Part shown: positions 10,750 to 29,669 of the stretch, in pieces
Layout: every line of letters starts with the position of its first letter
How positions within the stretch are numbered: position 1 is the stretch's first letter
Source of the DNA: Candidatus Oxydemutatoraceae bacterium
GTDB lineage: Bacteria > Pseudomonadota > Gammaproteobacteria > Poriferisulfidales > Oxydemutatoraceae
Length of the DNA stretch: 64,000 nt
Direction: 5' to 3'
Assembly: GCA_965218975.1 (NCBI GenBank)
Contig: OZ244717.1
Location: forward strand, 338,347 to 402,346
Program-made: the position numbers and the translations under genes
Notes under the pieces: model-generated
What the model saw: only the letters and a program-made list of their open reading frames with translations
What the model was told of the DNA's origin: nothing
Databases searched by the model: none

Positions 10750-13700
10750 GTATTCCGTAGCTATATGCTACGGCCTCATTGAAGCATCTCCATTTTATAC
10801 GCGGCAGAATTACCGCGTGATGTATTCCGTAGCTATATGCTACGGCCTCATTGAAGCGATATGGCCACATTCGGCGATGAGGACGATGACATCAGTATTC
10901 CGTAGCTATATGCTACGGCCTCATTGAAGCTAGAAGTAGTGGTTTTATACCTTGATAGAAGTTTTGTTGTATTCCGTAGCTATATGCTACGGCCTCATTG
11001 AAGCCGACACTGTATGTGATCGCGAGCTACTCTGTGACACGTATTCCGTAGCTATATGCTACGGCCTCATTGAAGCGAGAATAATGAAAAGTAAGATGAA
11101 AACACCTGCTTATGTATTCCGTAGCTATATGCTACGGCCTCATTGAAGCTTTTGCAGCAAGCTGCTAAAATTATGATAACAGATTGTATTCCGTAGCTAT
11201 ATGCTACGGCCTCATTGAAGCTTCTAAGTTCGGCTTCCATCATTTGTTGAGCACCTGGTATTCCGTAGCTATATGCTACGGCCTCATTGAAGCATCTACA
11301 AGTCGCTCGCATCTCCGCACGTCATCGGCGTATTCCGTAGCTATATGCTACGGCCTCATTGAAGCAGCACCGGTAGTTTCTGTTGAAGAACTTGCTATGA
11401 AGTATTCCGTAGCTATATGCTACGGCCTCATTGAAGCCAATGCCAAAGACCTAATGCACCATGTCATTAGATGTATTCCGTAGCTATATGCTACGGCCTC
11501 ATTGAAGCATCGACCAGCCGCTCGCATTTCTGCACGTCATCGGCGTATTCCGTAGCTATATGCTACGGCCTCATTGAAGCGAGATAACCGTCAGTAATTC
11601 CGCAAAGAATTTTGTGGTATTCCGTAGCTATATGCTACGGCCTCATTGAAGCGATTACTTGGGCACAAGAAACGAAAGCAGCATATCGTATTCCGTAGCT
11701 ATATGCTACGGCCTCATTGAAGCGAATTTTCAAGCGTTTGCGTGTACCAGATATGCCGGGTATTCCGTAGCTATATGCTACGGCCTCATTGAAGCCGTAC
11801 AGGCAGTCACGCATCGGAGATCGGCATCGCGGTATTCCGTAGCTATATGCTACGGCCTCATTGAAGCGAGAGGTTAGCTGCACCTGCCGACTGGAAAGAA
11901 TCAAGTATTCCGTAGCTATATGCTACGGCCTCATTGAAGCTCGAGTTATCTTCGCGTTAGTCGGGTCAAAAAATAGTATTCCGTAGCTATATGCTACGGC
12001 CTCATTGAAGCCTGCAATTCAACCTGCAAACCGTTTTTTACAATGCGGTATTCCGTAGCTATATGCTACGGCCTCATTGAAGCTGCCGCAAGTGTCGGGT
12101 TGCCGAAGTCGTTAAATGCGTATTCCGTAGCTATATGCTACGGCCTCATTGAAGCTTTACCCCGCTCCACAATGGCCATGATTGCTGCGTAGTATTCCGT
12201 AGCTATATGCTACGGCCTCATTGAAGCTGCGGGTCGCCGACGCAAGAAAAAAGGTTGCATTAGGTATTCCGTAGCTATATGCTACGGCCTCATTGAAGCT
12301 TGGCGGGACGCAACTAAGTCGACCGAAGGGTTAGGTATTCCGTAGCTATATGCTACGGCCTCATTGAAGCTGGGCTGTACCCTGACGACTCCTGCGAATT
12401 TGATGATGTATTCCGTAGCTATATGCTACGGCCTCATTGAAGCGCGGTAAACGCTAACTCCATGTTCAGCTAATCGGCTGCGTATTCCGTAGCTATATGC
12501 TACGGCCTCATTGAAGCCTCACTGCCTTCGTTTCCTTCCAGCATAATTACAGCGTATTCCGTAGCTATATGCTACGGCCTCATTGAAGCTATATTTTTTT
12601 TCTACATCTTCCATGTTTTATCTCCGTATTCCGTAGCTATATGCTACGGCCTCATTGAAGCCCACGATTATCTTTGTGTTGCGAATGATTGCCGAGGTAT
12701 TCCGTAGCTATATGCTACGGCCTCATTGAAGCCGGTGTAAAATCATCCATCAAAATAACGGTCTTGCTGTATTCCGTAGCTATATGCTACGGCCTCATTG
12801 AAGCAAGAAATTGAACATCGGCTACAGCTATGATACCTGACGTATTCCGTAGCTATATGCTACGGCCTCATTGAAGCTGTTTTGTAGTAGTGCATTGTTA
12901 GCAGTTCGTTTGTGTATTCCGTAGCTATATGCTACGGCCTCATTGAAGCTTCTCCAATAACTGTTGGGTCAGGCACAAGGCCTGCGTATTCCGTAGCTAT
13001 ATGCTACGGCCTCATTGAAGCTAGTAAGATCATTAGTTCTGCTGTTTTGAGATTCCGGTATTCCGTAGCTATATGCTACGGCCTCATTGAAGCTGCAAGA
13101 GCTAATTGAAGGTGGAAAAAATGGCAGGTGTATTCCGTAGCTATATGCTACGGCCTCATTGAAGCAACGTTACACAGAATTAGTTGTATAGACTTATTAG
13201 GGTATTCCGTAGCTATATGCTACGGCCTCATTGAAGCCCACGATTATCTTTGTGTTGCGAATGATTGCCGAGGTATTCCGTAGCTATATGCTACGGCCTC
13301 ATTGAAGCCGGTGTAAAATCATCCATCAAAATAACGGTCTTGCTGTATTCCGTAGCTATATGCTACGGCCTCATTGAAGCTCATTGACTCGGGATATGGA
13401 CGTCCTCGATTCTTTAGTATTCCGTAGCTATATGCTACGGCCTCATTGAAGCTATGCAAAAGATACCGAAGAATACAATAATTTGAAGTATTCCGTAGCT
13501 ATATGCTACGGCCTCATTGAAGCTTTGAAGATCAATATGTATTCAATCGTTAAGTTGGGGTATTCCGTAGCTATATGCTACGGCCTCATTGAAGCACATT
13601 GGATAGTGCTGCGATTGAGCCTTTTATGAGAGGTATTCCGTAGCTATATGCTACGGCCTCATTGAAGCCCATTCTCCAAAGCTGCCGCGAGAAACCCGTT

Positions 13701-15981
13701 CCCGCGTATTCCGTAGCTATATGCTACGGCCTCATTGAAGCTCTACGGTGATCTGACCGAGCACTTCCAACTCAGCGTATTCCGTAGCTATATGCTACGG
13801 CCTCATTGAAGCTACGCAGCGGTACGGCGTCTCGGAGCCGCACACTTGGGTATTCCGTAGCTATATGCTACGGCCTCATTGAAGCGAGGCAGCTTTGTCC
13901 ATTTGCTGGAGCCGCACGCGGTATTCCGTAGCTATATGCTACGGCCTCATTGAAGCCGGTGTAAAATCATCCATCAAAATAACGGTCTTGCTGTATTCCG
14001 TAGCTATATGCTACGGCCTCATTGAAGCTCATTGACTCGGGATATGGACGTCCTCGATTCTTTAGTATTCCGTAGCTATATGCTACGGCCTCATTGAAGC
14101 TATGCAAAAGATACCGAAGAATACAATAATTTGAAGTATTCCGTAGCTATATGCTACGGCCTCATTGAAGCTTTGAAGATCAATATGTATTCAATCGTTA
14201 AGTTGGGGTATTCCGTAGCTATATGCTACGGCCTCATTGAAGCACATTGGATAGTGCTGCGATTGAGCCTTTTATGAGAGGTATTCCGTAGCTATATGCT
14301 ACGGCCTCATTGAAGCCCATTCTCCAAAGCTGCCGCGAGAAACCCGTTCCCGCGTATTCCGTAGCTATATGCTACGGCCTCATTGAAGCCTCACTGCCTT
14401 CGTTTCCTTCCAGCATAATTACAGCGTATTCCGTAGCTATATGCTACGGCCTCATTGAAGCTATATTTTTTTTCTACATCTTCCATGTTTTATCTCCGTA
14501 TTCCGTAGCTATATGCTACGGCCTCATTGAAGCGCGGATGATAATTTGTGCAATTCCCTCATTTGCCTTAAGTATTCCGTAGCTATATGCTACGGCCTCA
14601 TTGAAGCCCGGAAGTTAAAGTCCCCATGTCCGCAGTTAAAGCGGAGTATTCCGTAGCTATATGCTACGGCCTCATTGAAGCGGCTCGGCAATTTCAGTCA
14701 TCAAATCTTTATAACTCGTATTCCGTAGCTATATGCTACGGCCTCATTGAAGCATGATGGTGTTTTAGCACCGTCATGAATGATGTTAAGTATTCCGTAG
14801 CTATATGCTACGGCCTCATTGAAGCTTGTTGCAGTATTTATTTTTATCTCGCTTGTCATGTTGTATTCCGTAGCTATATGCTACGGCCTCATTGAAGCTG
14901 GTAAGCACATTCGACTCAACCATGGCTTTCCTCACGTATTCCGTAGCTATATGCTACGGCCTCATTGAAGCTGTGTGGCGGAATGTCCCTTTTGGGTATA
15001 GTTTATCCGTATTCCGTAGCTATATGCTACGGCCTCATTGAAGCAGCGAAGAAGCCGATGAGGCAGGCGTATATATAGTGTATTCCGTAGCTATATGCTA
15101 CGGCCTCATTGAAGCGACCGCTGTAACTACGACCTGTCACATTACATAATGTATTCCGTAGCTATATGCTACGGCCTCATTGAAGCGGTGCTTTACTCAC
15201 GCATTCAAGGAATCCGGCGCATGTATTCCGTAGCTATATGCTACGGCCTCATTGAAGCAAATCTCCGTTGTTGTGGTGCCGGCAAGAGCGCCGGGTATTC
15301 CGTAGCTATATGCTACGGCCTCATTGAAGCAACCTTTGCATCTGGGGATAAAAAACAGTACTGGAATGTATTCCGTAGCTATATGCTACGGCCTTATTGA
15401 AGCATTGCAAATCATCCATATACGGATAAGGAAACAAAGTATTCCGTAGCTATATGCTACGGCCTCATTGAAGCTTTGGCTTCTATTGTTCTGCGCGGTT
15501 CGGGTACGCATGTATTCCGTAGCTATATGCTACGGCCTCATTGAAGCCCAACTATTTGGTCAACACCTATCAACCCAGAAATAAGTATTCCGTAGCTATA
15601 TGCTACGGCCTCATTGAAGCGACTCAACGCTAATGACGCATACGGCAAAGCCGGATGTATTCCGTAGCTATATGCTACGGCCTCATTGAAGCGGCGTTGG
15701 GTAAATCTCAGCTAGTGCGTAAAGTGCACGTATTCCGTAGCTATATGCTACGGCCTCATTGAAGCGATTTTCTAAGTCAGGAAGCTCCAACCCGCAACAT
15801 AGGTATTCCGTAGCTATATGCTACGGCCTCATTGAAGCAAGCCGCTGTTATATCGAGTGGTCAAGGAGTGAGTGGTATTCCGTAGCTATATGCTACGGCC
15901 TCATTGAAGCTTTTCGTTATTGGGACGCAAGTCATTCCAGGAGACGTATTCCGTAGCTATATGCTACGGCCTCATTGAAGC
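10750..15981 (+). CRISPR. CRISPR array, ~73 repeats of 36 bp (GTATTCCGTAGCTATATGCTACGGCCTCATTGAAGC) with ~35-37 nt spacers
   Basis: A perfect 36-bp direct repeat recurs at ~72-73 bp periodicity, with an internal 7-bp palindrome CCGTAGC-TATAT-GCTACGG. The 3' 'ATTGAAGC' end resembles the I-C/I-G 'ATTGAAAC' handle. The leader is cas2-proximal. One repeat (15368-15403) carries a C>T variant. Confidence 0.97.
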
Positions 15982-16010
15982 GCGATTAAATGTTTTTCGT
16001 AAATTTATGC

Positions 16011-16901
16011 TCAACGTTCACCACTGAATAAAGCCTCTTGAATGTCGCCTTGAATACAATTCTTCACGCCATTCGCATTTCTTTGTTTTGTATTTTTAAC
16101 AGGTTTCCTAAGTGGTTGCCCATTATGTTCAAGATACCCAAGAACTCTCCGCAAGCCAATTTCAACATGCTTTTGTGATCTTTCAATACCGATGCTTTTT
16201 CTACCTAATGTTCGTGCAACTGCATTAGTAGTAAATGCTCCTGCAAACGGGTCAAGAATTATATCTTCTTTATTTGAACTTGCTTGAACAATTCTTTGAA
16301 GAAGCGTTTCAGGTTTTTGGGATGGATGATCTTCATATTCATCCATCTTGTAACGTACTCGAGGAAAATACCAAACATTTCCTGGAACTTTTTTCGTATT
16401 ATAAATCGTTGGAATCTTTTTTCTGTAGTCAATAAGTTTACGTTTAGCCCCCGTTTTAGCTTCTATAGCAATTGTGTCAGCGTTAAAAGTGTAATTATCA
16501 AGATCTTTCACACAGAAAAGAATCGGTTCATACATGGAACCATAATATTTTTTCGCTTGCACCCCCGAACTATCATATGACCAAATAATTCTGCTAAGTA
16601 TGTTTATTCTCTTTCTCAATATAATATCTATGTAGGGCATAGCTTGGGTGCTTGTCATCACATACATAGAGCCTTGAGATGAAAGTTTATCAATACAAAG
16701 AGTTAACCATTTCTCACACCATTCAGCATACGCTTCATCAGAAGGCCATTTGTCATCAAATCCATCAAAGCGTTTCCCAATGTTGTAAGGGGGATCAGCA
16801 AATATCAAATCAATTGAATTATTAGCAATTTTATCGCGTAATACTTCTATTGCATCGCCTTGGTAAATGGCATGATTTTTTATTTCGTATTTTTTAATCA
16901 T
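16011..16901 (-). CDS. DNA methyltransferase, beta-class (motif IV 'DPPYNIG' precedes motif I 'LDPFAGAFTT'); N6-adenine or N4-cytosine
   Basis: 296 aa with both catalytic and AdoMet-binding motifs. The start codon is 4 nt downstream of the IS1595 transposase stop. Confidence 0.85.
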   Translation of the reverse strand: MIKKYEIKNHAIYQGDAIEVLRDKIANNSIDLIFADPPYNIGKRFDGFDDKWPSDEAYAEWCEKWLTLCIDKLSSQGSMYVMTSTQAMPYIDIILRKRINILSRIIWSYDSSGVQAKKYYGSMYEPILFCVKDLDNYTFNADTIAIEAKTGAKRKLIDYRKKIPTIYNTKKVPGNVWYFPRVRYKMDEYEDHPSQKPETLLQRIVQASSNKEDIILDPFAGAFTTNAVARTLGRKSIGIERSQKHVEIGLRRVLGYLEHNGQPLRKPVKNTKQRNANGVKNCIQGDIQEALFSGER

Positions 16902-16905
16902 TAAA

Positions 16906-17826
16906 TCAAGCTACCAATTGTTCATAAGTAATCGTCTTCCCAACCATGGCCTTAAAGAGATCATCAAGTCTGTCCTGTGTATCACGTTTCACATTGCCTT
17001 CATTAAGTCTGAATGTAAACTCATTTACATATTGTTGACAATGCTTCTTGCTCCAATTGTGGTAAACACCATTGAAGCCACGTTTAATCACTGACCATAC
17101 AGATTCAACTCCATTAGTATGCGCCATCCCGTTAACATATTCTCTTGCTGAATGTTTTACGCTTTCATGCTGATAATAGTCGCCTCCAATATCTTTATAA
17201 CCCTTGTGGTCATCCGTATAAATGGTGGTACCCACTTCAATGTTAGCAAGAACAGCACTATGAATAGTAGCCTTGTCTTCACCTTCAACTGGCATAGCTT
17301 TTACACGGCCTTCCCGTTCTCTCATACCCAGCACAGCCTGCTTTCCCACAGTACCGCGTCCGGCCTTGAGTTTCTTATGAGAGTGTTTATTCTTTTCAGC
17401 CCTACCAATATAGGTGGCGTCCATTTCCACTTCACCACTCAAGGCTTCAAGATTGTTGCCGCAAGCTAAACGTAGCCTATGCAGCATGTACCAGGCTGTC
17501 GGATAGCTAACGTCCAGTTCCTTGCTTAATTGCATGGCGGAAATACCTTTACGGGCGGTCATAAGCAGATACGCTGCAAATAGCCACATACGGGCATCAC
17601 GCACCCTGTTATGTTCAAGTGGGGTTTCTGTGAAAGCATTGAAATATCCGCGACAATCGCCGCACCAATAACCTTTCTTGTAGTTCTTTTGCTTGGTGAT
17701 TCTGCCGGTACAGCCGCATTTGACACATACAGGCTTAGTTCCCCATCTAAGCTGCTCAAGCTTCGGCAAAAATGTTTTCAAGGGCAATTTCATAATTGGA
17801 CTCTTTTGGCGATAGACCCCGTTCAA
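16906..17826 (-). CDS. IS1595-family (ISXO2-like) DDE transposase
   Basis: N-terminal zinc ribbon 'CVKCGCTGRITKQ...CGDCRGYF', a 'TAWYMLHRLR' helix and a DDE core 'IYTDDHKGY...HTNGVESVWSVIKRGFNGVYHNWS' are present. The start may be the second Met (17793). Confidence 0.8.
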   Translation of the reverse strand: MNGVYRQKSPIMKLPLKTFLPKLEQLRWGTKPVCVKCGCTGRITKQKNYKKGYWCGDCRGYFNAFTETPLEHNRVRDARMWLFAAYLLMTARKGISAMQLSKELDVSYPTAWYMLHRLRLACGNNLEALSGEVEMDATYIGRAEKNKHSHKKLKAGRGTVGKQAVLGMREREGRVKAMPVEGEDKATIHSAVLANIEVGTTIYTDDHKGYKDIGGDYYQHESVKHSAREYVNGMAHTNGVESVWSVIKRGFNGVYHNWSKKHCQQYVNEFTFRLNEGNVKRDTQDRLDDLFKAMVGKTITYEQLVA

Positions 17827-18193
17827 TTGATTTATTGCGGGTCACGCCCCGTGCCTTTAGGCAGGCAACTTTTAGGAGCCACTCATCAACATCCGGAATC
17901 CATTGTTCCTTTGTATCCGAAGGCAGCAGAAAAAGTCTTTGCTTCCCACCTTCGAGAAAGGGACTTTGTAAATTGTCACGTATATTTTTTAAAAGTATAT
18001 CGCTTGCTACAGAATCATCATAAATTTTATGGCACCAATTCCAAATCGGACCAAGTTTATCGGCCTTATCAACCACTTCCCCTGTTTCATCAAGGAGGAT
18101 ACTAACAGGAATTAGCTTCTTGTCGAACGCCTTCTTAGGATCAACAAGAGATTTACCGATTTTGGAATTTCGGTAACGTAATTCTTCCTTCAT
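17756..18193 (-). CDS. Hypothetical protein (145 aa), last gene of the GHKL/desulfurase operon
   Basis: Co-directional ORF after the 300-aa gene. No recognisable motif. Confidence 0.4.
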   Translation of the reverse strand: MKEELRYRNSKIGKSLVDPKKAFDKKLIPVSILLDETGEVVDKADKLGPIWNWCHKIYDDSVASDILLKNIRDNLQSPFLEGGKQRLFLLPSDTKEQWIPDVDEWLLKVACLKARGVTRNKSIERGLSPKESNYEIALENIFAEA

Positions 18194-18298: not shown

Positions 18299-19201
18299 TC
18301 AATTCTTTCCATCTTCAGCGGCTTTGACTGCATCAACAACGTCATCAGCAAGTCGACGAAGTTCAACATATTCAAGCACTGCTAGTTCTCGAGAACCGCC
18401 GATAAAGCAAATCTCCCGGCATACATCTAGCACTTTGCCGGCAGGCGGCAGTTTGCCGCTACTTTCATTGTCGTCGGGAAGAAATCTTGTGAGACTCGCC
18501 GCCACGGCTTCTTGGACCGAAGCTATTCCAAAAACGGGATTCCTGGATACCATTGCAGATACAAACCATTCCCAGTGGGCTTTTGTTTGCCGAAGTATTT
18601 TTCCTATCCGGTCTTTCGCTATCCCGGATTGTATCTCGGCTCGCCGAACTAGCCGCTCCCGCCACCAAGCTCTCGCAAACGGACAATCAACAAGAACACT
18701 TTTGTTCCCCCGAACATGAGGCAATCCACCCAGTTGGCGTAGAACCGAACGCACGCAGTTGTCCGTTTGCTCTTTTCTTTTAGGGTTCTCGTTGGCCATT
18801 ATCCTGTCAATACGCTCTGCGCCTGTTTGTGATGCGATCCCATTACTTGCGAGGAAACTCGGTTCGATTCGACCTTCCCGAACGTGGCACATAGTGACAT
18901 GAGTCCAAAATAATGTGCTTGAGGCAATCGACAAAGAAAGGTTATTCCAGAGATCGTACATCTTGGATTCAGTGCTAGCTGGGGGATCCTTGAATTGCGC
19001 CTCGCTCATCTTGACCTGATACAGATCGGGATCAATCAAACCAGAAACCGGAATCTGCTCCATAGTTTTGATGAATGCTTCCCCGTCTCTGATCTCTTGA
19101 AGAAATGCCTCTTGTTTTTCGCTACCTTTCTCGCTAAGCAAATTCGCCCGGAATTTGGCCCACTCTTTGTCGTCAAGACATTTCCAATCAAGTTCACTCA
19201 T
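18299..19201 (-). CDS. Hypothetical protein (300 aa) in the GHKL/desulfurase operon
   Basis: Its start overlaps the upstream stop (ATGA at 19198-19201). No family recognised. Confidence 0.55.
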   Translation of the reverse strand: MSELDWKCLDDKEWAKFRANLLSEKGSEKQEAFLQEIRDGEAFIKTMEQIPVSGLIDPDLYQVKMSEAQFKDPPASTESKMYDLWNNLSLSIASSTLFWTHVTMCHVREGRIEPSFLASNGIASQTGAERIDRIMANENPKRKEQTDNCVRSVLRQLGGLPHVRGNKSVLVDCPFARAWWRERLVRRAEIQSGIAKDRIGKILRQTKAHWEWFVSAMVSRNPVFGIASVQEAVAASLTRFLPDDNESSGKLPPAGKVLDVCREICFIGGSRELAVLEYVELRRLADDVVDAVKAAEDGKN

Positions 19202-20087
19202 CTTCGTGCCTCAATGGTGGGGGTACATCATGCGGATAAAGCAGCGTTGCAGCCTCCTCAGGTCTGAAATCCGGATCTTCCCAATTACAATTAGTGCAGC
19301 CTTTCGTTTCCAGATCATTGGCAAGCGATTCTAGAGCTTTGTAACTGCACCATCCTTCTTCACTATCTCCGTCGGAATCCTTGTATTTCCGTTGCAGTGC
19401 AGAAAAGCACGAAGTCACGACATGAGTCATAATGTCCTTGCGTTTATCCGAATAGTGCCCTTTGTCTTGAAGAAAAGTATAAAGAGCTGGACCACAATGT
19501 ACTACGAAGCGGAACGTGTCTCCATCAACAGCCTCTGTATAAAATTGGCCTTGCTTTAAGCTTTCGTCCGACCAAATAGAAATGAGTCCTTGAAGACCTG
19601 ATGCCCCAAGATTAAATACCGGCCCCTGCGCAAGCCAAGCACCCTTCGGAAATATTACTTCCAAACCATTCCAGTCGGGATGTACATCATCCTTTTCAGA
19701 ATCCAGAGTACAGAATATTTCCCGGATGCATACAATTACTGGAGTGAAGTACGGAGGCTCACCAAAGTTTGTGTTATTCCAAGCAATTTCCTGGGTCGGA
19801 TCTTGAGAACACTGAAGTTCCCGATACGCCGAGCGAGGCGCGGCCAAAGAACAAGCATACCGGGCATGTTTTTGCGCAATCAGTCGCTCGACCAGACGGG
19901 CACCCGTCACCGAATGCGTTAGCAAGAAGCGGCTTTTGTCGGAACTAAACCTATGTTGAACCTGACTATGTTGAACCTGATAATTGCCATTCGGGAAGGC
20001 ATCATTGCCTTCCTCAATTGCCGGATAATTACGCGCCAGAATCGCGTTCGCCCCGGGGGCGCTCTTGGCGTTGATGTCGGTATTCAT
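19194..20087 (-). CDS. Hypothetical Cys-rich protein (297 aa) in the GHKL/desulfurase operon
   Basis: A 4-bp overlap with the upstream GHKL gene. The C-terminal 'GWCSYK...KGCTNCNWEDPD' may be a zinc-binding cluster. Confidence 0.55.
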   Translation of the reverse strand: MNTDINAKSAPGANAILARNYPAIEEGNDAFPNGNYQVQHSQVQHRFSSDKSRFLLTHSVTGARLVERLIAQKHARYACSLAAPRSAYRELQCSQDPTQEIAWNNTNFGEPPYFTPVIVCIREIFCTLDSEKDDVHPDWNGLEVIFPKGAWLAQGPVFNLGASGLQGLISIWSDESLKQGQFYTEAVDGDTFRFVVHCGPALYTFLQDKGHYSDKRKDIMTHVVTSCFSALQRKYKDSDGDSEEGWCSYKALESLANDLETKGCTNCNWEDPDFRPEEAATLLYPHDVPPPLRHEDE

Positions 20088-22051
20088 TCTGAAGTGCTTA
20101 TGGTGGGCTTAGTATCATCGGAGGGTCTCTTGCCAATCTCCACTCGGAGACTTGCTCCGGATTGGATAGGGACACCATCGGCTGCCAGTTTATATTCGGC
20201 CTCTACTTCGGTCGTAGTATTCTTTCCAAGATTGCCCAGCAAAATAGCAGGATAGGGTTTGGTAATTATTCTATCCGGCTGAATCGTTTTTCCATTGACC
20301 TTCGCCGCGGTGATTGCGGCAACACGATCAGTCCATATACGCTCAGTCGTTACATCCGAATGATCATCAACAACGAGACGGAGTTCCAGATCTTCACAAG
20401 GCTCAATGCAATGGATCCGGATTTTCCGGCGATTTGAAGCCGATGGAGTAACAACGATCTTAAAATATTGCGGCAAGGTCGGCCTTTCCCGAGAGCCGCT
20501 CCGGCTACTTTGCCGTCTTTTCCCGGTATTCTTGCTTCGGCCCTTGTTCCTGCCACCTGTCGTTCCCCCGGGCCCTGTTTCATGTGGTCGCCGTGAGGAT
20601 ATCCGTCTCTTAATCAGCGCGATTGTGCCCTGATATTCCCGACCGGCTTTTTTTCCTTGTCGGCTTCCGGCGGTGCTATCAGGGAAGACCAAGAAGTCGT
20701 CAGGGCTATACTCGTCAGAAGTAAGTTTTGGTATTACCTCTTCGATTTTCTTTTTAATCACATTAAATGCCTGACGTAGCTGCTTCCAGTCCTCGTTGCT
20801 GATAGCCTTCTTATCAAGCCGATTGTGTAGAGGCCCCTCAGCTTTTCCAATAAGATCGTGGAACCGGCGGGGCGCGCTCTTTGCGGAAACCAGAACCAAA
20901 CCTTCAAAGGCCTCATAGTCTGCAAAGTTAAAACCGGGAATGTTGCCGGTAATCCACATACCGTTCCTGCAAAGATTTACTCGCGTTCGCCCTGAAGGCG
21001 CCGGATGCTGAACGAAAAGTCTTACCGAGCCATCCAGGACCTCAACTTCATGGCGATAACCTCCTCGGTAGGCTTGATAGGCAAAAAATGCCTGTTCGCC
21101 CGGGAGATAGTCCTTTTTCCGTTTTTGTTCCCGATATTTCTCCAGAACAGTCTGCAACTGCTCACTCGTAAGTTCCCGCTGGGGCTTATTGCCCTCGCCT
21201 TCAATAACCACCTCGAGCTGCCCATCAGCTATTGCGACAAAAAAACTACAGGCAATAGCCTCCGGTACGGTATCAGATAGAAAATCCTTATCCTTACTAC
21301 GAAAACGGTTGAATGCAGGAACGATAACGGCAGTCCCATGTCCGGAATCCTTCTCAATATCCGCCAAAGCGTTTTTAATCAATATCGGAAGGTCATTTCC
21401 CCACGGGTATATGTATTCTCTTTTTTTGCGATCAACCAAGTAATAACCGTTAGCGCTCCGCCCTGTGTCGTCGCTCTGGTTAGCATAATGGGATGCGAGA
21501 ATTGCGTGGCCGCTTGCAATCCGTTTCCCGTTGCAAATACCACCGTAGAGTACATACCTGAGATCTGAGGCGGGAAATAACGAAAAATGCCCAACGCCGA
21601 AGGTACCGGACGCTCCACTTTCCTTGCGACTTCTGCCGTCCGACAATAATGCCGTCATTCTGTCTTTGTCGAGGCCAATACCATTGTCCGAAACAATAAG
21701 TGCCTGCTGCCAATCTTGTGATAGCGCTTCAGAGATTCTGTCAGCCACAATTTGCTCCTGATCATTGAGCGAACCGTTGTTTTCCTCCTCACGCCTTTTC
21801 ACTGCTTTCTTAAAAGCGGATTTATAACTCTCAATTCCAGGTATATCTTCGGTTTTTACCTCCGTAGTAGAAAAACGTACTATAGCCCTAGCCTCACGAA
21901 CCCCAGTGTAATGGAGGGCGGCGGCGGCATCCAGAGAATTTTGGATCAGCTCGCGCACAATTGCGAACGAACTCATCTCTCGGAAGCTGCTAATGCTAGC
22001 AGCCGTAAATCCGTAAGAGTCACTCGATTTGAAAAAATAAAGATCTGTCAT
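20084..22051 (-). CDS. GHKL-superfamily (MORC/MutL/Hsp90-like) ATPase, 655 aa
   Basis: Bergerat-fold motifs are 'VRELIQNSLDA' (N box), 'VSDNGIGLDKD' (G1) and 'GTFGVGHFSLF' (G2). There is a basic low-complexity linker and a C-terminal domain. The ORF overlaps the desulfurase stop by 4 bp. Confidence 0.8.
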   Translation of the reverse strand: MTDLYFFKSSDSYGFTAASISSFREMSSFAIVRELIQNSLDAAAALHYTGVREARAIVRFSTTEVKTEDIPGIESYKSAFKKAVKRREEENNGSLNDQEQIVADRISEALSQDWQQALIVSDNGIGLDKDRMTALLSDGRSRKESGASGTFGVGHFSLFPASDLRYVLYGGICNGKRIASGHAILASHYANQSDDTGRSANGYYLVDRKKREYIYPWGNDLPILIKNALADIEKDSGHGTAVIVPAFNRFRSKDKDFLSDTVPEAIACSFFVAIADGQLEVVIEGEGNKPQRELTSEQLQTVLEKYREQKRKKDYLPGEQAFFAYQAYRGGYRHEVEVLDGSVRLFVQHPAPSGRTRVNLCRNGMWITGNIPGFNFADYEAFEGLVLVSAKSAPRRFHDLIGKAEGPLHNRLDKKAISNEDWKQLRQAFNVIKKKIEEVIPKLTSDEYSPDDFLVFPDSTAGSRQGKKAGREYQGTIALIKRRISSRRPHETGPGGTTGGRNKGRSKNTGKRRQSSRSGSRERPTLPQYFKIVVTPSASNRRKIRIHCIEPCEDLELRLVVDDHSDVTTERIWTDRVAAITAAKVNGKTIQPDRIITKPYPAILLGNLGKNTTTEVEAEYKLAADGVPIQSGASLRVEIGKRPSDDTKPTISTSE

Positions 22052-23202
22052 GCTACTGCTACTCCTTCACCAAACTGCCGTTCAAACGCAAGAGCGGCAA
22101 GCATAATATCCTCCTCTGTGGTAAACCGGCCTAGGCTAATACGGACCGCCTGAAGCGCCGACAAAGGCGGTTGTCCGAGGGCCGTTAAAACATGAGACGG
22201 TTCAACCCCTCGTGACGAACAGGCAGAACCCGTTGAAATCGCCACGCTCCCTTCAAGCCCGGCAATTACTTCATCTCCGGATATCCCCGGAAACGACACA
22301 TTTAAACTTCCCGGTACACGTTGATATTTGTGCCCGTTCAGTTGAAGCCCTGGCGCGCTTTTCTGCAGTAACTGCCATAGCCGGGAAGTCAGTTTCCTGA
22401 TACGTAACGAATCCTTTTCTGTCTCATTCAACGCAATTTCACATGCCGCACCAAAGCCAACAACGAGATGTACGGGCAAGGTGCCGGGACGTAAGCCGCG
22501 CTCCTGACCACCTCCTGTAGCAACCGGCCCGATGCGATCAAAAGTATCGTTGTGGACATAGAGGACCCCAATCCCCATCGGGCCATATACTTTGTGCGAG
22601 GATAACGACAACAGGTCGATTCCAAGCGAATCGACATCAATTCCTATTTTTCCGGCGGCTTGGGTTGCATCCGTATGCATTAACGCACCATGCTCATGGG
22701 CAATCGACGCAATCTCGGCAACCGGATGAACAACTCCAATTTCGTTATTAACCAGCATAGCGGATACTATCGCAGTCTTATCGCTGATCGCATCTTGCAT
22801 TTCGTCCATATCCATAATGCCGTCCGGATTCACCCCGATCTTGCGGATAGGAACTCCATCCAAACCCAATGCTCGAACTGTTTCCAAAACTGCCGGGTGC
22901 TCGGTAGCTACAGTAATAATCTCGTTACGGCCAGTGCTTCTCTTGATCGTGCCTCGAAGCGCAATGTTGCAGGATTCCGTTGCGCCGGAAGCAAAAATAA
23001 TTTCTTGGTCGTCTGCGCCTAACAGGGCAGCTACCTGAGCACGACCTTCAGCTACGGCCCGCGCCGCATTCCATCCATAGGCATGATGGATTGCATGGGG
23101 ATTCCCAAAACGCTCTTGCAGAAAAGGCTGCATGGCATCTCGAACCCGGGGGTCAAGCGGAGTGGTGGCCTGGTAGTCCAGATACACCGGTGCAGAAGCC
23201 AT
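22048..23202 (-). CDS. Cysteine desulfurase (class V PLP aminotransferase; IscS/NifS/DndA/SspA-like)
   Basis: PLP-lysine motif 'SSHKVYGPMGIGVLYV' and active-site Cys loop 'STGSACSS'. The likely start is 'MASAPVYLDYQATTPLD' at 23202. The longer listed ORF to 23274 overlaps the upstream gene. Confidence 0.85.
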   Translation of the reverse strand: MASAPVYLDYQATTPLDPRVRDAMQPFLQERFGNPHAIHHAYGWNAARAVAEGRAQVAALLGADDQEIIFASGATESCNIALRGTIKRSTGRNEIITVATEHPAVLETVRALGLDGVPIRKIGVNPDGIMDMDEMQDAISDKTAIVSAMLVNNEIGVVHPVAEIASIAHEHGALMHTDATQAAGKIGIDVDSLGIDLLSLSSHKVYGPMGIGVLYVHNDTFDRIGPVATGGGQERGLRPGTLPVHLVVGFGAACEIALNETEKDSLRIRKLTSRLWQLLQKSAPGLQLNGHKYQRVPGSLNVSFPGISGDEVIAGLEGSVAISTGSACSSRGVEPSHVLTALGQPPLSALQAVRISLGRFTTEEDIMLAALAFERQFGEGVAVA

Positions 23203-23206
23203 ATGT

Positions 23207-24568
23207 TTAGTCAGTGCAATCACATGGCAACATGGCCTTGGTTTCAGTGAGCGCTTGGACTCCGCGGTCCGCAATGTTTCGGTAAGTCATCTTGCTGTTC
23301 GTTCCAAAGAAACCGACTGTACCGTCAATGCCTCGTTGTTCTGCTGTCAAATCCCGAGTGTAGGTATCCTCTATACGAGCCCACCAAGCGACATCCATCG
23401 GTGTGTTCTGCTGACTGTTAGGTAAATCTGCCTCGCATTCCGAATGAATACTCTCATAAACCTTAGTCAGGTTTGATGTTCCCTTGAGAAAACAGTAAAC
23501 ACAATTGGACAGATGCCCGGTCGCGGGGAGTTTCAATTCAAAATCCTTGTTTTTCCGCCAGAATGCCTTAACGTCTTCTTTTTTTACACACATGTCTGAA
23601 AGCGGCATATAGACATGTTCTCCTTCATACTCCCGAACCTCAGAACTGCCCGAGATTCTCGCTTCGACACGTTGCACACGTGCCTCTTCATCTCCCCTCA
23701 ACCCGATAAAAGCGACATATTGCACTCCACCCTCGCCAAATACAGCATTCCCCCCATACGCTTTCCCATCCAAGAGCTTACTGTCCATGGCGTCTGATGC
23801 TGTCGAAAAATCCTTATAACGTTGCTCCGGACGACATACCGGCTGTGACATCACAAATTTCTTCTTGGCCAGAAAAATATCTCTTGGGACCCCGCCATTA
23901 TTGCGACGGTGGCGTTGATAAAGCGTTTCCTCATCAACCTGGGGCTTATTCTCCCAATGGCCAAGACGAGGAATGATTTTTTTGCAGGCCAGCCAGTCGC
24001 GCAGAAACATTCGTGTTGTCTCAAGTTTCAGAGTTGCTGTGCAGGTCCGGCGGAACTGGTTGGGAACATACCCTGACCACGACAACATCTCCTCAAAGAC
24101 CTCGCCCCTCCAGCAGTAACCATCCGGGTTATTTTCCGAACGAGGCTTGGCATTCACTAGCCGATAGGAAGGCAAACGAGTCCAGTCGCCGTTGCGCACA
24201 TCTTCATAGGTTTGATACTCGATCAGAAAAAATGGAATTCCGTAGCAAGATTCTGCTCGTTTCTTGCATTGGGCTACAAAGTCATAGGTGGCCGGATGTT
24301 CGGCAGCAGTATTGTTAAAGAGTATGACATCACCGCGCTCGGCCTTTAGTACACGGTTTTCCAGCAGAGTAAACAAAAGCATTCCGCTGGATCGACCGCC
24401 GGAGAATTTGACAACGTGAGGAAAATTCTCGTGCCTTTTAGACCGATATCGAAACTGATACTCGAACTCCGGATCGTATTTTTTTGGTTTGCGAAGGCGT
24501 TTCGAAACTACTAGCTTGGGAATTCCTTTTACAGAATGTTTAACAAGATTTTCTACAACGGTCTGCAT
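23207..24568 (-). CDS. PAPS-reductase-family PP-loop ATP pyrophosphatase (DndC/SspD-like), 453 aa
   Basis: PP-loop 'VVKFSGGRSSGMLLF', 'FNNTAAEHPATYDF', and a C-terminal Cys cluster 'MLPCDCTD'. Confidence 0.7.
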   Translation of the reverse strand: MQTVVENLVKHSVKGIPKLVVSKRLRKPKKYDPEFEYQFRYRSKRHENFPHVVKFSGGRSSGMLLFTLLENRVLKAERGDVILFNNTAAEHPATYDFVAQCKKRAESCYGIPFFLIEYQTYEDVRNGDWTRLPSYRLVNAKPRSENNPDGYCWRGEVFEEMLSWSGYVPNQFRRTCTATLKLETTRMFLRDWLACKKIIPRLGHWENKPQVDEETLYQRHRRNNGGVPRDIFLAKKKFVMSQPVCRPEQRYKDFSTASDAMDSKLLDGKAYGGNAVFGEGGVQYVAFIGLRGDEEARVQRVEARISGSSEVREYEGEHVYMPLSDMCVKKEDVKAFWRKNKDFELKLPATGHLSNCVYCFLKGTSNLTKVYESIHSECEADLPNSQQNTPMDVAWWARIEDTYTRDLTAEQRGIDGTVGFFGTNSKMTYRNIADRGVQALTETKAMLPCDCTD

Positions 24569-24623
24569 TACGGCCTGCCTCCAAAAATCCGGGAATTATT
24601 AAGATTCGTTGACAAGGACTGAC

Positions 24624-24968
24624 TTATTCAACCTCTTCCATGATTGGTTTTCCCTTGCGACCTACCCGCATTCTAAACTTTCTTTGCAAGTCTTTCTTGA
24701 AAACATAGGTTCGATTAAGAGGGTAAAACTCGTTCATCATCGAAAGTTTAGACATGACAAAAGAGTCTTTATCGTAATTTTCATCAAAATCGCAACCCCA
24801 TCCAAAGCAAACAAACGGCGTCAGAGCCTCATGGTTCATCGCTGCCCTGATGCCTATCAGATTCTTGCCAAGTCGTTCTATAGCGTTTCCTTGTGCCTGT
24901 TTTTTCTTTCCTTCCTGTTCACGTTCCCTATTCGTTCCCTGTTTCTTTATTTCTGAAACAACAATCAA
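24624..24968 (-). CDS. Possible small protein (114 aa) at the head of the sulfur-modification-like operon
   Basis: Co-directional ORF 55 bp upstream of the PP-loop gene. Lys/Glu-rich N-terminus, no motif. It may be non-coding. Confidence 0.25.
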   Translation of the reverse strand: MIVVSEIKKQGTNREREQEGKKKQAQGNAIERLGKNLIGIRAAMNHEALTPFVCFGWGCDFDENYDKDSFVMSKLSMMNEFYPLNRTYVFKKDLQRKFRMRVGRKGKPIMEEVE

Positions 24969-25031
24969 TTTGCGGTAGTTGGCATCATTTTCCTTTCTCA
25001 GCCAGATTACCCCGCCATCGGGTATTATTGT

Positions 25032-25781
25032 TCAATCAGTAAACACCAAATCAAACTCATGTCTCTGGCCGGCCCCTTTGATTATAGATGGCTTTGTCGC
25101 TCCGTTTGGAGTCTTTATTCTTGACCTTGTGTTGCGCCGTGTTTTGGCGCAGATCCTCTGCTCTAGCCACTGTAGAAATAATGCCCCTTTTAGCCCATGA
25201 ATATTGAAAATCAAAACTTCACTATGGAATAGAACATCGTTGTATATGTCTTTCGGCAAGGCCACTATAGACGTGATTTCAGGGTAGGTTCCATCTACAA
25301 AACGCATCCAACGCTTGCTATTCAGAGTCTGGTTAAGACGTAACCCATAAGGCGCAAACAAAACAATCGGGATGTTTTTACCAAATAACTCTATCGTTTT
25401 ACGCAACCAGACTTCAAGTAAAAGCGGACGTCTGCCGAATGTTTCCGATACCAACTGTTTTGTTTTTTCTTCAATATTAAAAGGCGGGTTCGCAATGACA
25501 AGTGCGGGTTTTTCCACTTCACCTCTTGAAAGGGAAATAAAATCCCTGACAATCGTGTCGGGAAATCCTTGATCCTCTATGTCAACCCCTTTTGTTTTGA
25601 ACCCCGCTTGCTTAAAAGGGATAAGAAGCGAACCCTTACCTACACACGGGTCAAATACGATTCTGTCGGATTTGATTTTCTTATGAACAATACTAAACAG
25701 GAATTGGCTTAATTCCGGCGGGGTGTAGACTGTGGAGTTCTTTTGCTCCTTGTAAAAGTCGTTGCGGTCAACGCGATACAT
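25032..25781 (-). CDS. N6-adenine DNA methyltransferase, gamma-class (motif I 'FDPCVGKGSL' then motif IV 'NPPF')
   Basis: 249 aa. The ATG immediately abuts the TGA of the upstream IS1595 transposase remnant (tgaATG). Confidence 0.8.
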   Translation of the reverse strand: MYRVDRNDFYKEQKNSTVYTPPELSQFLFSIVHKKIKSDRIVFDPCVGKGSLLIPFKQAGFKTKGVDIEDQGFPDTIVRDFISLSRGEVEKPALVIANPPFNIEEKTKQLVSETFGRRPLLLEVWLRKTIELFGKNIPIVLFAPYGLRLNQTLNSKRWMRFVDGTYPEITSIVALPKDIYNDVLFHSEVLIFNIHGLKGALFLQWLEQRICAKTRRNTRSRIKTPNGATKPSIIKGAGQRHEFDLVFTD

Positions 25782-26130
25782 TCATGCTACCAGTTTCTCA
25801 AACGTTACGGTCTTCCCAACCATGGCCTTAAACAGGTCATCCGGTTTGTCTTGTGTATCACGAGCAACATTGTCTTCATTCAGGCGAAAGGTGAACTCGT
25901 TGACGTACTGCCGGCAATGCTTCTTGCTCCAATTGTGGTAAACACCATTGAAGCTGCGTTTGATGAGCAACCATACAGACTCGACCCCGTTTGGTATGAG
26001 CCGTCCCGTTCACATACTCTCTGGCCGAATGGTTGACCTTTGCCTTTATACCCCCTGTAATCATCGGTGTAAGGAGTAGAGCCAAGCTCAATGTGCTCGC
26101 GGAATGGCATTGCTGGTCGTTTCATGGTCC
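25782..26130 (-). pseudogene. 5'-truncated, frameshifted remnant of an IS1595-family transposase
   Basis: The 62-aa ORF 'FNGVYHNWSKKHCRQYVNEFTFRLNEDNVARDTQDKPDDLFKAMVGKTVTFEKLVA' is ~85% identical to the C-terminus of the 16906-17826 transposase. An upstream 81-aa ORF in another frame matches the 'IYTDDHKGYK' region. Confidence 0.75.
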
Positions 26131-26544
26131 TCGGCCCGTATCGGCATGGCCTTTATATGGCCGCCACGCTCCTGCATCCCCAGCACGGCCCGTTCGTCTA
26201 CCGATCCTCGTCCAGCTTTCAGCTTCTTGTCCATGTGCTTGTTCTTTCATTTACGGGCATCCATGAGCTTGTTGTGCTCAAAAAGACTTAGCGTTTTAGC
26301 GTGTTTTCTAGACATCTTTCTTGTTCCTACAGAATATGAATTAATGCCTTTGAAGCCCCGCAACTTTGAAGAATATGGGCTAGTGATTATACACGCTTCG
26401 CTTCTGCTCTCCCGCTTCTCTCCTTACCTTTCTGCACAGGAGGCATGTCAACAGATGAGCCAACGACATGCCCTTCAAACTACCTCAATCGGTCGCAAGG
26501 CAGTGCCTTATTGGTCGTTCCCCCGTTCGCGGGTGCATAAGCTC

Positions 26545-27060
26545 AGAAACATTTGAAACCGTTTTGTGTTTGGTGGCAGATTGTCGGCGGATTGTGCCGG
26601 ATTATTGGTGGATTGTTGGTAGGTTGTGCCGGATTATTAGCAAAGTGCATGTCGTCCATGACGCGACTGGGTTCTGTCAACAAGCCCCAGCCCCGACATC
26701 CTTGTCGGGTCGTTCGCCGCTGAAAACCGTTCGGTTTTCCGGGCGCGGCTTACCCATGACGCGACTGGGTTCTGTCAACAAGCCCCAGCCCCGACATCCT
26801 TGTCGGGTCGTTCGCCGCTGAAAACCGATCGGTTTTCCGGGCGCGGCTTACCCATGACGAGACTGGGTTCTGTCAACAAGCCCCAGCCCCGACATCCCTG
26901 TCGGGTCGTTCGCCGCTGAAAACCGTTCGGTTTTCCGGGCGCGTCTCACCCGACAACGGACAGAAAGCACCGATCCGAATGTTGCTGCCGAATGCTTCCC
27001 CGGAAGCCCTTCAAGAATCCCATTTAGGGTGGCATCGTACATTCTTGACAAGCCCGCCGC
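26545..27060. repeat. Composite intergenic repeat locus R1: GGATTGTCGG-type short repeats, 3 tandem ~98-bp two-hairpin units, and a conserved ~110-bp tail
   Basis: The unit 'ATGACGCGACTGGGTTCTGTCAACAAGCCCCAGCCCCGACATCCTTGTCGGGTCGTTCGCCGCTGAAAACCGTTCGGTTTTCCGGGCGCGGCTTACCC' recurs three times. It carries hairpins CCGACA-tcct-TGTCGG and GAAAACC-gttc-GGTTTTC. Confidence 0.9.
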
Positions 27061-27487: not shown

Positions 27488-27852
27488 TCGTTCGCCGCTG
27501 AAAACCGTTCGGTTTTCCGGGCGCGGCTCACCTGTTTTGTGTTTGGTGGTAGATTGTCGGCGGATTGTGCCGGGTTGTTGGTGGATTGTTGGTAGGTTGT
27601 GCCGGATTATTAGCAAAGTGCATGTCGTCCATGACGAGACTTCGTGCTGTTAATGAACCCCAGCCCCGACATCCTTGTCGGGTCGTTCGCCGCCCGCTAA
27701 AAAAGGTGGCACCGTTCGGTTTTCCGGGGCGCGGCTCACCCATGACGAGACTTGGTTCTGTCAATGAGCCCCAGCCCCGACATCCCTGTCGGGTCGTTCG
27801 CCGCTGAAAACCCCGCTGAAAACCGTTCAGTTTTCCGGGCGCAGCTCACCCT
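27488..27852. repeat. Composite repeat locus R2 (same family; head plus ~2.5 units)
   Basis: Same head ('gattgtcggcggattgtgccgggttgttggtggattgttgg...caaagtgcatgtcgtccatgacg') and same hairpin units as R1. Confidence 0.9.
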
Positions 27853-29661: not shown

Positions 29662-29669
29662 AAAACAGA

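Follow-up and report, generated by a model that had tools for sequence, protein, structure and literature searches.

The segment between positions 15986 and 17760 of the DNA analysed here (the window, a 64,000-nt stretch of contig OZ244717.1 from a Candidatus Oxydemutatoraceae bacterium) is in all likelihood the immobilised remnant of an IS1595-family transporter insertion sequence (tIS), belonging to the subgroup with GGGAATTAT ends and 8-bp target duplications. The two minus-strand genes from which the original prediction started, a transposase at 16906-17826 and a complete DNA methyltransferase at 16011-16901, are both present, and they form one unit, the same tight junction being found in 18 of 39 relatives, in a second relic within the window and in the related locus L054. 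The description as a mobile orphan-methylase unit is right in part: the relatives transpose as a unit, and this copy was probably mobile in the past. At present it is not: it has no ends and can no longer move, and its cargo appears to have been a restriction-modification pair. The finding is real and mostly ordinary, a known kind of element and not a new kind of system. IS1595 elements had been said to be normally single-gene, which leaves out of account the passenger-carrying tIS already recognised in this family; according to the TnCentral preprint (bioRxiv 10.1101/2021.05.26.445724), only the IS1595 and IS66 families contain tIS.

Table 1. Positions of the features at the two IS1595-related loci of the window and at the adjoining CRISPR boundary
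Positions	Strand	Feature	Basis or remark
15946..15981	+	Last CRISPR repeat, perfect copy, of an array of 73 repeats	Regex scan
15986..16024	-	Remnant of Type II restriction-endonuclease gene: GTG start, 12 codons, then TAA	Homology to L056
16011..16901	-	N6-adenine DNA methyltransferase, beta-class, YhdJ/PRK11524 type, complete, 296 aa	Pfam, PADLOC, NCBIfam
16902..16905	-	Transposase/methyltransferase spacer, 4 nt (ttta)	Sequence
16906..17826	-	IS1595-family transposase ORF	306 aa, TTG start
16906..17760	-	Part of the transposase homologous to relatives, residues about 23-306	Pfam, NCBIfam, alignment
17761..17826	-	Non-native stretch of 22 codons at the 5' end of the transposase ORF	Upstream DNA and protein alignments
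17756..18193	-	145-aa orphan ORF	Ends at first stop codon within transposase-homologous sequence, spans breakpoint
24591..24699	+	Conserved right-end module of the second relic, with the right inverted repeat GGGAATTATTAAGATTCGTTGACAAGG	Motif scan, identity to L033
24624..24968	-	114-aa chimeric ORF: EcoRI-like restriction endonuclease fragment (N-terminal) and translated right-end module (C-terminal)	Pfam, tblastn
25032..25781	-	Second cargo methyltransferase, gamma-class, NPPF, 249 aa	Sequence and profile searches
25785..26264	-	Transposase pseudogene, frameshifted, 5'-truncated, residues about 135-306	blastn, tblastn

The transposase ORF matches the Pfam domain DDE_Tnp_IS1595 (E=3e-43) and the NCBIfam model ‘IS1595 family transposase’ (NF033547; 193 bits, cut-off 75); its identity to the relatives ranges from 39 to 79%. 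In an alignment with 11 relatives the catalytic residues D136, D205 and E241 are invariant, and the window protein reads DDHK where many relatives have DE. The Pfam match to Zn_ribbon_IS1595 is weak (21.6 bits, under the cut-off of 25.4); the zinc-ribbon cysteines C34, C37, C55 and C58 are invariant among the relatives, and the N-terminal zinc ribbon is present. As a counter-point to the reading as a relic, the ORF is uninterrupted and has kept all its catalytic and zinc-binding residues, which is unexpected in an old relic and could reflect a recent truncation or some retained function.

At its 5' end the gene no longer resembles those of its relatives. Homology begins at about residue 23, while the first ~22 codons are homologous to no relative; an alternative ATG exists at 17793. 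This foreign sequence has taken the place of the native N-terminus, promoter and left inverted repeat. The overlapping 145-aa ORF has no homologue besides itself and found no match in Pfam, PADLOC or NCBIfam; it is probably a fragment or fusion ORF lying outside the element. A search for the terminal motifs GGGAATTAT (at most one mismatch) and ATTAGTTGACAA (at most two mismatches) across the whole window returned the site at 24591 only, and neither a left nor a right inverted repeat was found near the copy at 16011-17826. De novo searching for inverted repeats between 15900 and 18400 produced only short pairs at chance level, and comparison of the upstream with the downstream flank by blastn-short gave a 12-mer palindrome and nothing more. 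Promoter and terminator predictions were at or below shuffle expectation and were not used. Of the inverted repeats and target duplications that the original prediction had proposed to look for, none can be demonstrated at this copy; in the relatives the repeats lie beyond the methyltransferase and are accompanied by 8-bp duplications. No inverted repeat separates the two genes.

The methyltransferase is recognised by N6_N4_Mtase (Pfam, E=2e-54) and MTase_II (PADLOC, E=9e-128), and it fits the PRK11524 equivalog for adenine-specific DNA methyltransferases full-length (NCBIfam, 447 bits, cut-off 292; the match covers positions 8-283 of the 294 in the profile), placing it with the CcrM-related beta-class methylases of YhdJ type; MboIIA, CcrM and RsrI methylases are its fold relatives in the PDB. 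Motif IV (ADPPYN, near residue 36) lies N-terminal to motif I (DPFAGAFTT, near residue 218). The DPPY signature was correctly called; motif I contains FAGAF and is not a strict FxGxG. The gene has a GC content of 35.6% compared with about 48-50% around it; that of the transposase is also below the surroundings, the methyltransferase being the lowest. Exact look-ups of this methyltransferase in the contig index gave no match. E. coli YhdJ is a solitary, non-essential enzyme that methylates ATGCAT. This hexamer occurs 12 times in the window against 13 expected, i.e., there is no avoidance, in a sample too small for this to carry meaning.

On the minus strand, the transposase TGA (16908-16906) and the methyltransferase ATG (16901-16899) are separated by ttta, which confirms the predicted 4-nt gap. 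Translational coupling of the two genes is plausible from this arrangement. A short-motif scan found no Shine-Dalgarno-like sequence upstream of the methyltransferase ATG; in the relatives, such a match was absent in 10 of 18 cases and weak in the other 8.

The far side of the methyltransferase provides evidence for a lost partner. Homologues that are 69-82% identical to it are followed by an overlapping gene of 370-394 aa, and complete pairs of methyltransferase and restriction genes are found in L055, L056, L057 and L059; the downstream genes of L055, L056 and L059, the three tested, correspond to REase_II in PADLOC (PDLC03455, E about 1e-170 to 1e-182). The L056 DNA is 80.7% identical to the window over 922 nt, continuing 22 nt beyond the methyltransferase stop codon, and residues 1-12 of its restriction gene align to 16024->15989, where the GTG of the remnant overlaps the 3' end of the methyltransferase gene. 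Homology to both L056 and L054 stops at 15989-15990. The window thus contains an incomplete Type II restriction-modification system, with a whole methyltransferase and 12 codons of the restriction gene. The distance of exactly 29 nt from the last CRISPR repeat to the methyltransferase stop codon is as originally given, but this stretch is not neutral, since it holds these 12 codons. These alignments argue that the element first carried a Type II restriction-modification pair and later lost the restriction gene by deletion, and that the last CRISPR repeat forms the edge of the presumed deletion. The spacers of the array do not match the related elements. Compared with enzymes of the YhdJ/PRK11524 type, what distinguishes the window methylase is that its close homologues usually have a Type II restriction enzyme as partner; it would therefore have become an orphan secondarily and would not be a housekeeping methylase of ancestral origin. 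Were it expressed, perhaps through transcription reading in from the operon upstream, it would today act as an orphan modification enzyme.

Searches for the transposase elsewhere yielded 53 related loci; 39 distinct elements were evaluable, nearly all of these from sponge-symbiont MAGs. The pairing recurs: the first cargo gene is a DNA methyltransferase in 20/39 elements, and in 18/39 its start overlaps the transposase stop codon or lies within about 20 nt of it (gaps of -4, -1, +2, +4 and +18), the two remaining cases having longer gaps (+31 in L038, about 420 nt in L013). These cargo methyltransferases span at least five Pfam families (N6_N4_Mtase, MethyltransfD12, N6_Mtase, EcoRI_methylase and MT-A70), and a restriction enzyme gene often comes next; the third genes of L003, L008 and L021 are REase_II according to PADLOC. 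Inverted-repeat pairs enclose both transposase and cargo in about 25 loci, and about 20 relatives have passenger genes placed between the transposase and the terminal repeat; these terminal repeats are 25-40 nt long and begin with GGGAATTAT. L011 and L012 have a 3182-bp unit in common that is bounded by perfect 40-nt inverted repeats, and 8-bp target duplications are seen in L014, L015 and L025-L028. The last four are copies, on one Amylibacter chromosome, of a 2.66-kb unit composed of a transposase and a methylase-HNH gene, each with its own duplication (TAAAAATA, TAAACAAG, TTAAATTT and TTTCCATT). This multi-copy evidence comes from records titled chromosome assemblies, although nearly all comparison loci are MAGs. 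On the transposase tree, IS forms with a single gene and those with cargo are intermixed. The restriction-modification pair related to that of the window also occurs in L059 and L060, with a fragment of an IS1595 transposase two genes upstream; these two loci lack convincing inverted repeats and were therefore not counted as tIS.

At the locus L054, the decayed 3' end of a transposase is joined through the same junction to an 83%-identical methyltransferase, followed by an internally deleted restriction gene. Its context is housekeeping and unrelated to that of the window; L054 is an independent recurrence of the same pair. The placement of the window methyltransferase as a passenger gene derives from this junction homology.

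A second relic from this element family, in a further state of decay, lies at 24591-26264 and is the only other copy within the window. Its pseudo-transposase is 79% identical to 16906-17165 by blastn, with a tblastn match spread over three frames, and its stop codon abuts the ATG of the second methyltransferase (TGAATG). The 114-aa ORF gives a borderline match to Pfam EcoRI (E=1.2e-4, 21.7 bits, cut-off 22), and its C-terminal part matches the right ends of relatives by tblastn. The right end itself is 78% identical to that of the L033 element over 109 nt. The right inverted repeat at 24591 sits beyond the second methyltransferase and thus offers in-window proof of a methyltransferase as cargo. 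Together with the relatives, this second relic suggests that the copy at 16011-17826 was formerly mobile.

Could the flagged unit instead be a still-active two-gene element, whose transposase moves itself and the methyltransferase? Its intact catalytic core and zinc ribbon speak for this, and equivalent two-gene units do transpose in the relatives. We nevertheless consider this very unlikely, because the unit has no inverted repeat on either side, the native 5' end of the transposase has been replaced, its 3' side passes into a truncated restriction gene and from there into the CRISPR array, and the single further copy in the window is decayed. An even slimmer chance is given to domestication, in which a transposase-like protein and the methyltransferase would form a two-component defence or epigenetic module, the former being, e.g., a DNA-cutting or DNA-targeting partner of the methylase. 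The flagged unit is part of a defence island, with CRISPR-Cas on one side and a phosphorothioation-like cluster on the other. This location, the persistent and tight coupling of the clade's transposases to many methyltransferase families, and an ORF that remains intact despite the loss of the element ends speak for such a module. However, the relatives show the inverted repeats, 8-bp duplications and multiple copies of ordinary transposons, single-gene forms are scattered among the cargo-bearing ones on the transposase tree, and PADLOC has no model that matches the transposase. Moreover, the transposase decays while the methyltransferase is kept, both in the second relic and in L054; the pair is therefore not co-maintained.

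The boundary of the flagged copy cannot be read directly, as its inverted repeats are missing, and a single-gene IS might by accident have inserted beside a resident methyltransferase. This is hardly credible and already contradicted: L054 and the second relic have the same junction, a methyltransferase occupies this slot in 18/39 relatives with the inverted repeats beyond it, and both genes, the methyltransferase most, have a lower GC content than their surroundings.

Under the preferred reading as a tIS relic, the ancestral element would have comprised, in order, a left inverted repeat, the transposase, the methyltransferase, the restriction endonuclease, a conserved segment, about 110 bp long, of the right end, and a right inverted repeat. 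Its cargo genes would have been linked to the transposase via overlapping or nearly abutting stop and start codons, and would therefore probably have been co-transcribed, and possibly co-translated, with it. The element would have landed next to the CRISPR array in the defence island and undergone two rearrangements afterwards. One took about 22 codons of the transposase along with its promoter and the left inverted repeat; the other removed the right end and the restriction gene from codon 13 on. Left behind would be a lone adenine methyltransferase of YhdJ type, next to a transposase ORF whose catalytic core is intact but which lacks ends to work on. The second relic would illustrate a later stage of the same history, with a pseudo-transposase, an intact methyltransferase, a fragment of a restriction gene and a right inverted repeat that has stayed in position. 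Such relics would explain the low-GC methyltransferase at the CRISPR trailer, the absence of its restriction partner, and why two different methyltransferases of the island each come after a transposase.

In ISfinder, the tIS of the IS1595 family are the groups ISNwi1+ and ISPna2+ (Siguier, Gagnevin and Chandler 2009). To these the window transposase is similar in its DDE_Tnp_IS1595 domain and N-terminal zinc ribbon, and its relatives do so in their inverted repeats, 8-bp duplication and passengers located between transposase and right inverted repeat. The ISNwi1 subgroup presumably has ggnnatTAT ends, an 8-bp duplication and its own catalytic signature, and the ends and duplications of the relatives fit this description. 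The window copy differs by lacking both ends and part of its cargo, and this clade, mostly from sponge symbionts, differs in that about half of its elements have methyltransferase or restriction-modification genes in a cargo slot linked directly to the stop codon of the transposase. IS-flanked restriction-modification and solitary methylase genes are on record; for these, Furuta et al. 2010 refer to the paper on the IS1595 family. Known restriction-modification and solitary methylase units bounded by inverted repeats share the 8-bp target duplication and the loss of the restriction gene that leaves a solitary methylase; these units are without an identifiable transposase gene of their own, whereas here the transposase lies directly upstream of the methylase.

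These elements offer a route, defined by sequence, by which restriction-modification systems may arrive on IS1595-type tIS and decay to solitary methylases, and intact relatives with defined ends, e.g., the four-copy Amylibacter element or the 3.18-kb element of OZ241969, are open to experimental testing. A broader proposal is more tentative, and we place it somewhat on the doubtful side of even. This IS1595 clade, abundant in sponge symbionts, might be a dedicated vehicle for restriction-modification and methyltransferase genes, with a fixed, stop-codon-chained slot that takes unrelated methyltransferase families and ties cargo expression to that of the transposase; its decay, in which the restriction gene and the transposase are lost and the methylase is kept, might be a major source of the orphan methyltransferases and layered defence islands that are typical of these genomes, the window preserving two fossils. 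No account of an IS1595 clade with a methyltransferase bias turned up in the literature searched, and a scan of viral contigs found no relative of the transposase. Plasmid matches to the transposase are at most 43% identical; their cargo is of other kinds (a PIN-domain gene, or nearby an AAA ATPase), and they therefore have no bearing on the methyltransferase bias.

The IS1595-family transposase and the adjoining complete methyltransferase of the original prediction were confirmed by their ORFs, profile matches and junction sequence (TGA-ttta-ATG, from transposase stop to methyltransferase start). The transposase scores 193 bits against a cut-off of 75 with the NCBI IS1595-family model and matches the Pfam IS1595 zinc ribbon weakly. 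In PADLOC the methyltransferase matches MTase_II (E=9e-128), and with the NCBIfam PRK11524 adenine-methyltransferase equivalog it scores 447 bits against a cut-off of 292; its closest relatives of solved structure are the MboIIA, CcrM and RsrI methylases. The GC content of 35.6 % for the methyltransferase and 44.3 % for the transposase, in surroundings of 48–50 %, fits a recent import of the pair. The flagged feature is real and well explained, a decayed new example of an already known kind of element.

Features of the flagged copy, the second relic and the intervening gene cluster
Feature	Position	Strand	Basis
IS1595-family transposase, 306 aa	16906..17826	minus	Pfam DDE_Tnp_IS1595, E=3e-43
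N6-adenine methyltransferase, complete, 296 aa	16011..16901	minus	Pfam N6_N4_Mtase, E=2e-54
Transposase pseudogene, frameshifted, 5'-truncated	25785-26264		match to flagged transposase
Second methyltransferase, intact, gamma-class, NPPF motif	25032-25781		Pfam N6_Mtase
114-aa ORF between right inverted repeat and second methyltransferase	24624-24968		N-terminal part: EcoRI family, weak
PDC-M33B	19194-20087	minus	
PDC-M33A-like HATPase protein	20084-22051	minus	
DndA/SspA-type cysteine desulfurase	22048-23274	minus	
PP-loop protein	23207-24568	minus	weak SspD and BrxP matches
300-aa protein, fifth member of cluster 18299-24568		minus	

Relatives of the transposase (39–79 % identity) were found at 53 loci when one genome per species was scanned; nearly all are in MAGs of marine bacteria, sponge-associated or otherwise. 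With identical copies collapsed and two loci cut by contig ends left out, 39 distinct elements could be evaluated. The pairing, whose recurrence in other genomes had been proposed as a check, does recur: the cargo begins with a DNA methyltransferase ORF in 20 of the 39, and in 18 its start overlaps or nearly abuts the transposase stop (ATGA, GTGA, TAATG; gaps -4, -1, +2, +4, +18), the wider gaps being those of loci L038 (31 nt) and L013 (~420 nt). Methyltransferases of at least five unrelated families fill exactly this slot at the transposase stop codon; Pfam assigns the cargo enzymes to N6_N4_Mtase, MethyltransfD12, N6_Mtase, EcoRI_methylase and MT-A70, with a fused HNH nuclease in six and Mrr in one. 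The third gene of three loci (L003, L008, L021) matches a PADLOC Type II restriction enzyme; other cargo comprises KilA-N, Bro-N, HNH and DUF2513, and single-gene forms also occur. In a neighbour-joining transposase tree, single-gene elements and those with different cargo are intermingled, including among the relatives closest to the window. Some wider interest attaches only to the bias of the clade towards restriction-modification cargo. Many cargo methyltransferases are ~400–500 aa long with a DPPF motif (L023-L028, L001, L005, L022, L030, L046). The fused HNH domain is C-terminal in the six scanned, shown individually for L026; candidate roles for these methylase-HNH proteins are single-chain restriction-modification enzyme or homing-type nuclease.

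Eight Oxydemutatoraceae copies of a 1382-bp single-gene element (L014-L020, L041) have 28-nt inverted repeats starting GGGAATTAT and 8-bp target duplications, and two loci of OZ241969 (L011, L012) share a 3182-bp unit with 40-nt perfect inverted repeats. In Amylibacter (L025-L028), each copy of a 2.66 kb element encoding the transposase and a 412-aa methylase-HNH protein has its own 8-bp duplication (TAAAAATA, TAAACAAG, TTAAATTT, TTTCCATT); at least four copies of this version have transposed. These multi-copy genomes answer directly that the cargo is inside the element, and a pattern search found inverted-repeat pairs around transposase and cargo at ~25 loci. The ends and 8-bp duplication presumably fit the ISNwi1 subgroup of ISfinder. 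The transposase-cargo elements of the relatives are transporter insertion sequences (tIS), which carry passenger genes between transposase and terminal inverted repeat, a category that TnCentral gives for the IS1595 and IS66 families only (bioRxiv 10.1101/2021.05.26.445724). Furuta et al. (2010) refer to the IS1595 family paper on restriction-modification genes and solitary methylase genes that have IS elements at their flanks. A ~110-bp segment beside the right inverted repeat is conserved despite unrelated cargo (window 24591-24699; L033 6446-6554; L002, L003, L004, L030, L021, L011), and cargo always enters between it and the transposase stop.

The flagged copy is truncated on both sides. 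Upstream DNA and protein alignments place the start of homology to relatives no earlier than about residue 23 (LEQLRWG), near 17760; the relatives' additional ~22 codons (M.KK.A.TLSLF.LM..YPTEEDAI.YFE), promoter region and left inverted repeat are replaced by an orphan 145-aa ORF (17756-18193), which terminates at the first stop codon within transposase-homologous sequence and for which a homologue search found none. The remainder of the transposase is intact, with its four zinc-ribbon cysteines, D136, D205 and E241 all kept in the alignment. A whole-window scan for inverted-repeat core motifs gave 24591 as the sole site and none at the flagged copy.

On the other side, close homologues of the methyltransferase (69–82 % identity) are followed by an overlapping 370–394-aa gene, which in the three tested (L055, L056, L059) is PADLOC REase_II PDLC03455 (E ~1e-170 to 1e-182). 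DNA homology to L056 (80.7 % over 922 nt) continues for 22 nt beyond the methyltransferase stop, as far as 15989, leaving a restriction-gene remnant of 12 codons (16024-15989), then TAA, four bases and a CRISPR repeat. Judged from this remnant and the pairing in the homologues, the original cargo was therefore a methylase-restriction pair. The last of the 73 repeats (15946-15981) is a perfect copy, which suggests that the original trailer was deleted, and its predicted distance of 29 nt from the methyltransferase stop is exact in the repeat scan. The array (10750-15981) has 62 unique spacers out of 72, with duplicated spacer blocks (e.g., 13309-13705 again at 13957-14353).

Comparison of the region with the window by blastn aligned 16906-17165 with 25782-26041 (79 % identity), starting exactly at the transposase stop codon. 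There a pseudo-transposase stop abuts the ATG of another methyltransferase without a gap (TGAATG); the window therefore holds two such transposase-methyltransferase pairs, whose methyltransferases are unrelated to each other. At 24591 the right inverted repeat reads GGGAATTATTAAGATTCGTTGACAAGG, and the 109 nt from this point match the right end of the L033 element at 78 % identity. The EcoRI restriction endonuclease match of the 114-aa ORF is weak (E=1.2e-4); relative L051 matches the same family with E=1e-40. The pseudo-transposase is thus followed by the methyltransferase, the restriction-gene fragment and the right inverted repeat, in this order. The second methyltransferase sits inside the element, which settles the boundary question within the window, and the use of inverted repeats as a check on methyltransferase position has borne out its inclusion: they enclose transposase and cargo in relatives and lie beyond the methyltransferase in the second relic.

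In the metagenomic locus L054, a methyltransferase 83 % identical to the flagged one is flanked by housekeeping genes and directly preceded by the decayed 3' end of the same transposase (residues 209–306), with an equivalent stop-to-ATG junction; an internal deletion in its restriction gene fuses the first ~12 codons to the last ~45. As the layouts of L054 and the second relic show, restriction gene and transposase have thus been lost, with the methylase retained, in at least two further cases. In L059-L061, a fragment of another IS1595-clade transposase is located two genes upstream of the same methylase-restriction pair (methylase 69 % identical), and a search for inverted repeats detected none; this module seems repeatedly associated with IS1595 transposases.

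Protein family membership, junction recurrence, the relatives' inverted repeats and target duplications, and the window truncations are counted as the observed basis. The ancestor of the flagged copy would have had standard ends, and its cargo would have depended on transposase transcription and translation; ahead of the cargo start, a scan for short motifs detected nothing resembling a Shine-Dalgarno sequence in 10 of the 18 relatives and only weak matches in the other 8. The restriction gene and the element's right end were deleted as far as the CRISPR array; the methyltransferase may still be expressed and active.

An accidental adjacency of the two genes is contradicted by the recurrence of the pairing. 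The original prediction of a mobile orphan-methylase unit is partly right: transposase-methylase units have transposed in relatives, but the cargo of the flagged copy was once a methylase-restriction pair, and because its ends are missing this copy is unlikely to be an active mobile unit. Domestication of the pair as a transposase-methylase module is also unlikely: the relatives behave as ordinary transposons, and two of the three relics keep the methylase although their transposase has decayed.

The decayed tIS copy lies within a defence island with type I-U/I-G-like cas genes (Cas3, GSU0053, GSU0054, Cas4-Cas1) and the CRISPR array, a phosphorothioation-like cluster, the second relic and another methyltransferase paired with a TdeIII restriction enzyme. 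The five genes of the phosphorothioation-like cluster, which has a tIS relic on either side, may encode a variant of DNA phosphorothioation or a candidate defence system. The further Type II pair (27910-30455) consists of a 583-aa N6_N4 methyltransferase, then the TdeIII-family endonuclease (E=4e-87). Directly 5' of the truncated pseudo-transposase lies a 98-nt GC-rich repeat in three tandem and additional diverged copies (26656-26949, 27629-27837), possibly a REP- or MITE-like element; a 160-nt block is duplicated (26561-26720 and 27534-27693). Elsewhere, a ~35-nt near-identical motif, cttccttGGTAATTATCAGTACACAAATACCGGCG, occurs four times in ORF 52746-54761 (52962, 53697, 54066, 54420), indicating an internally repetitive product.
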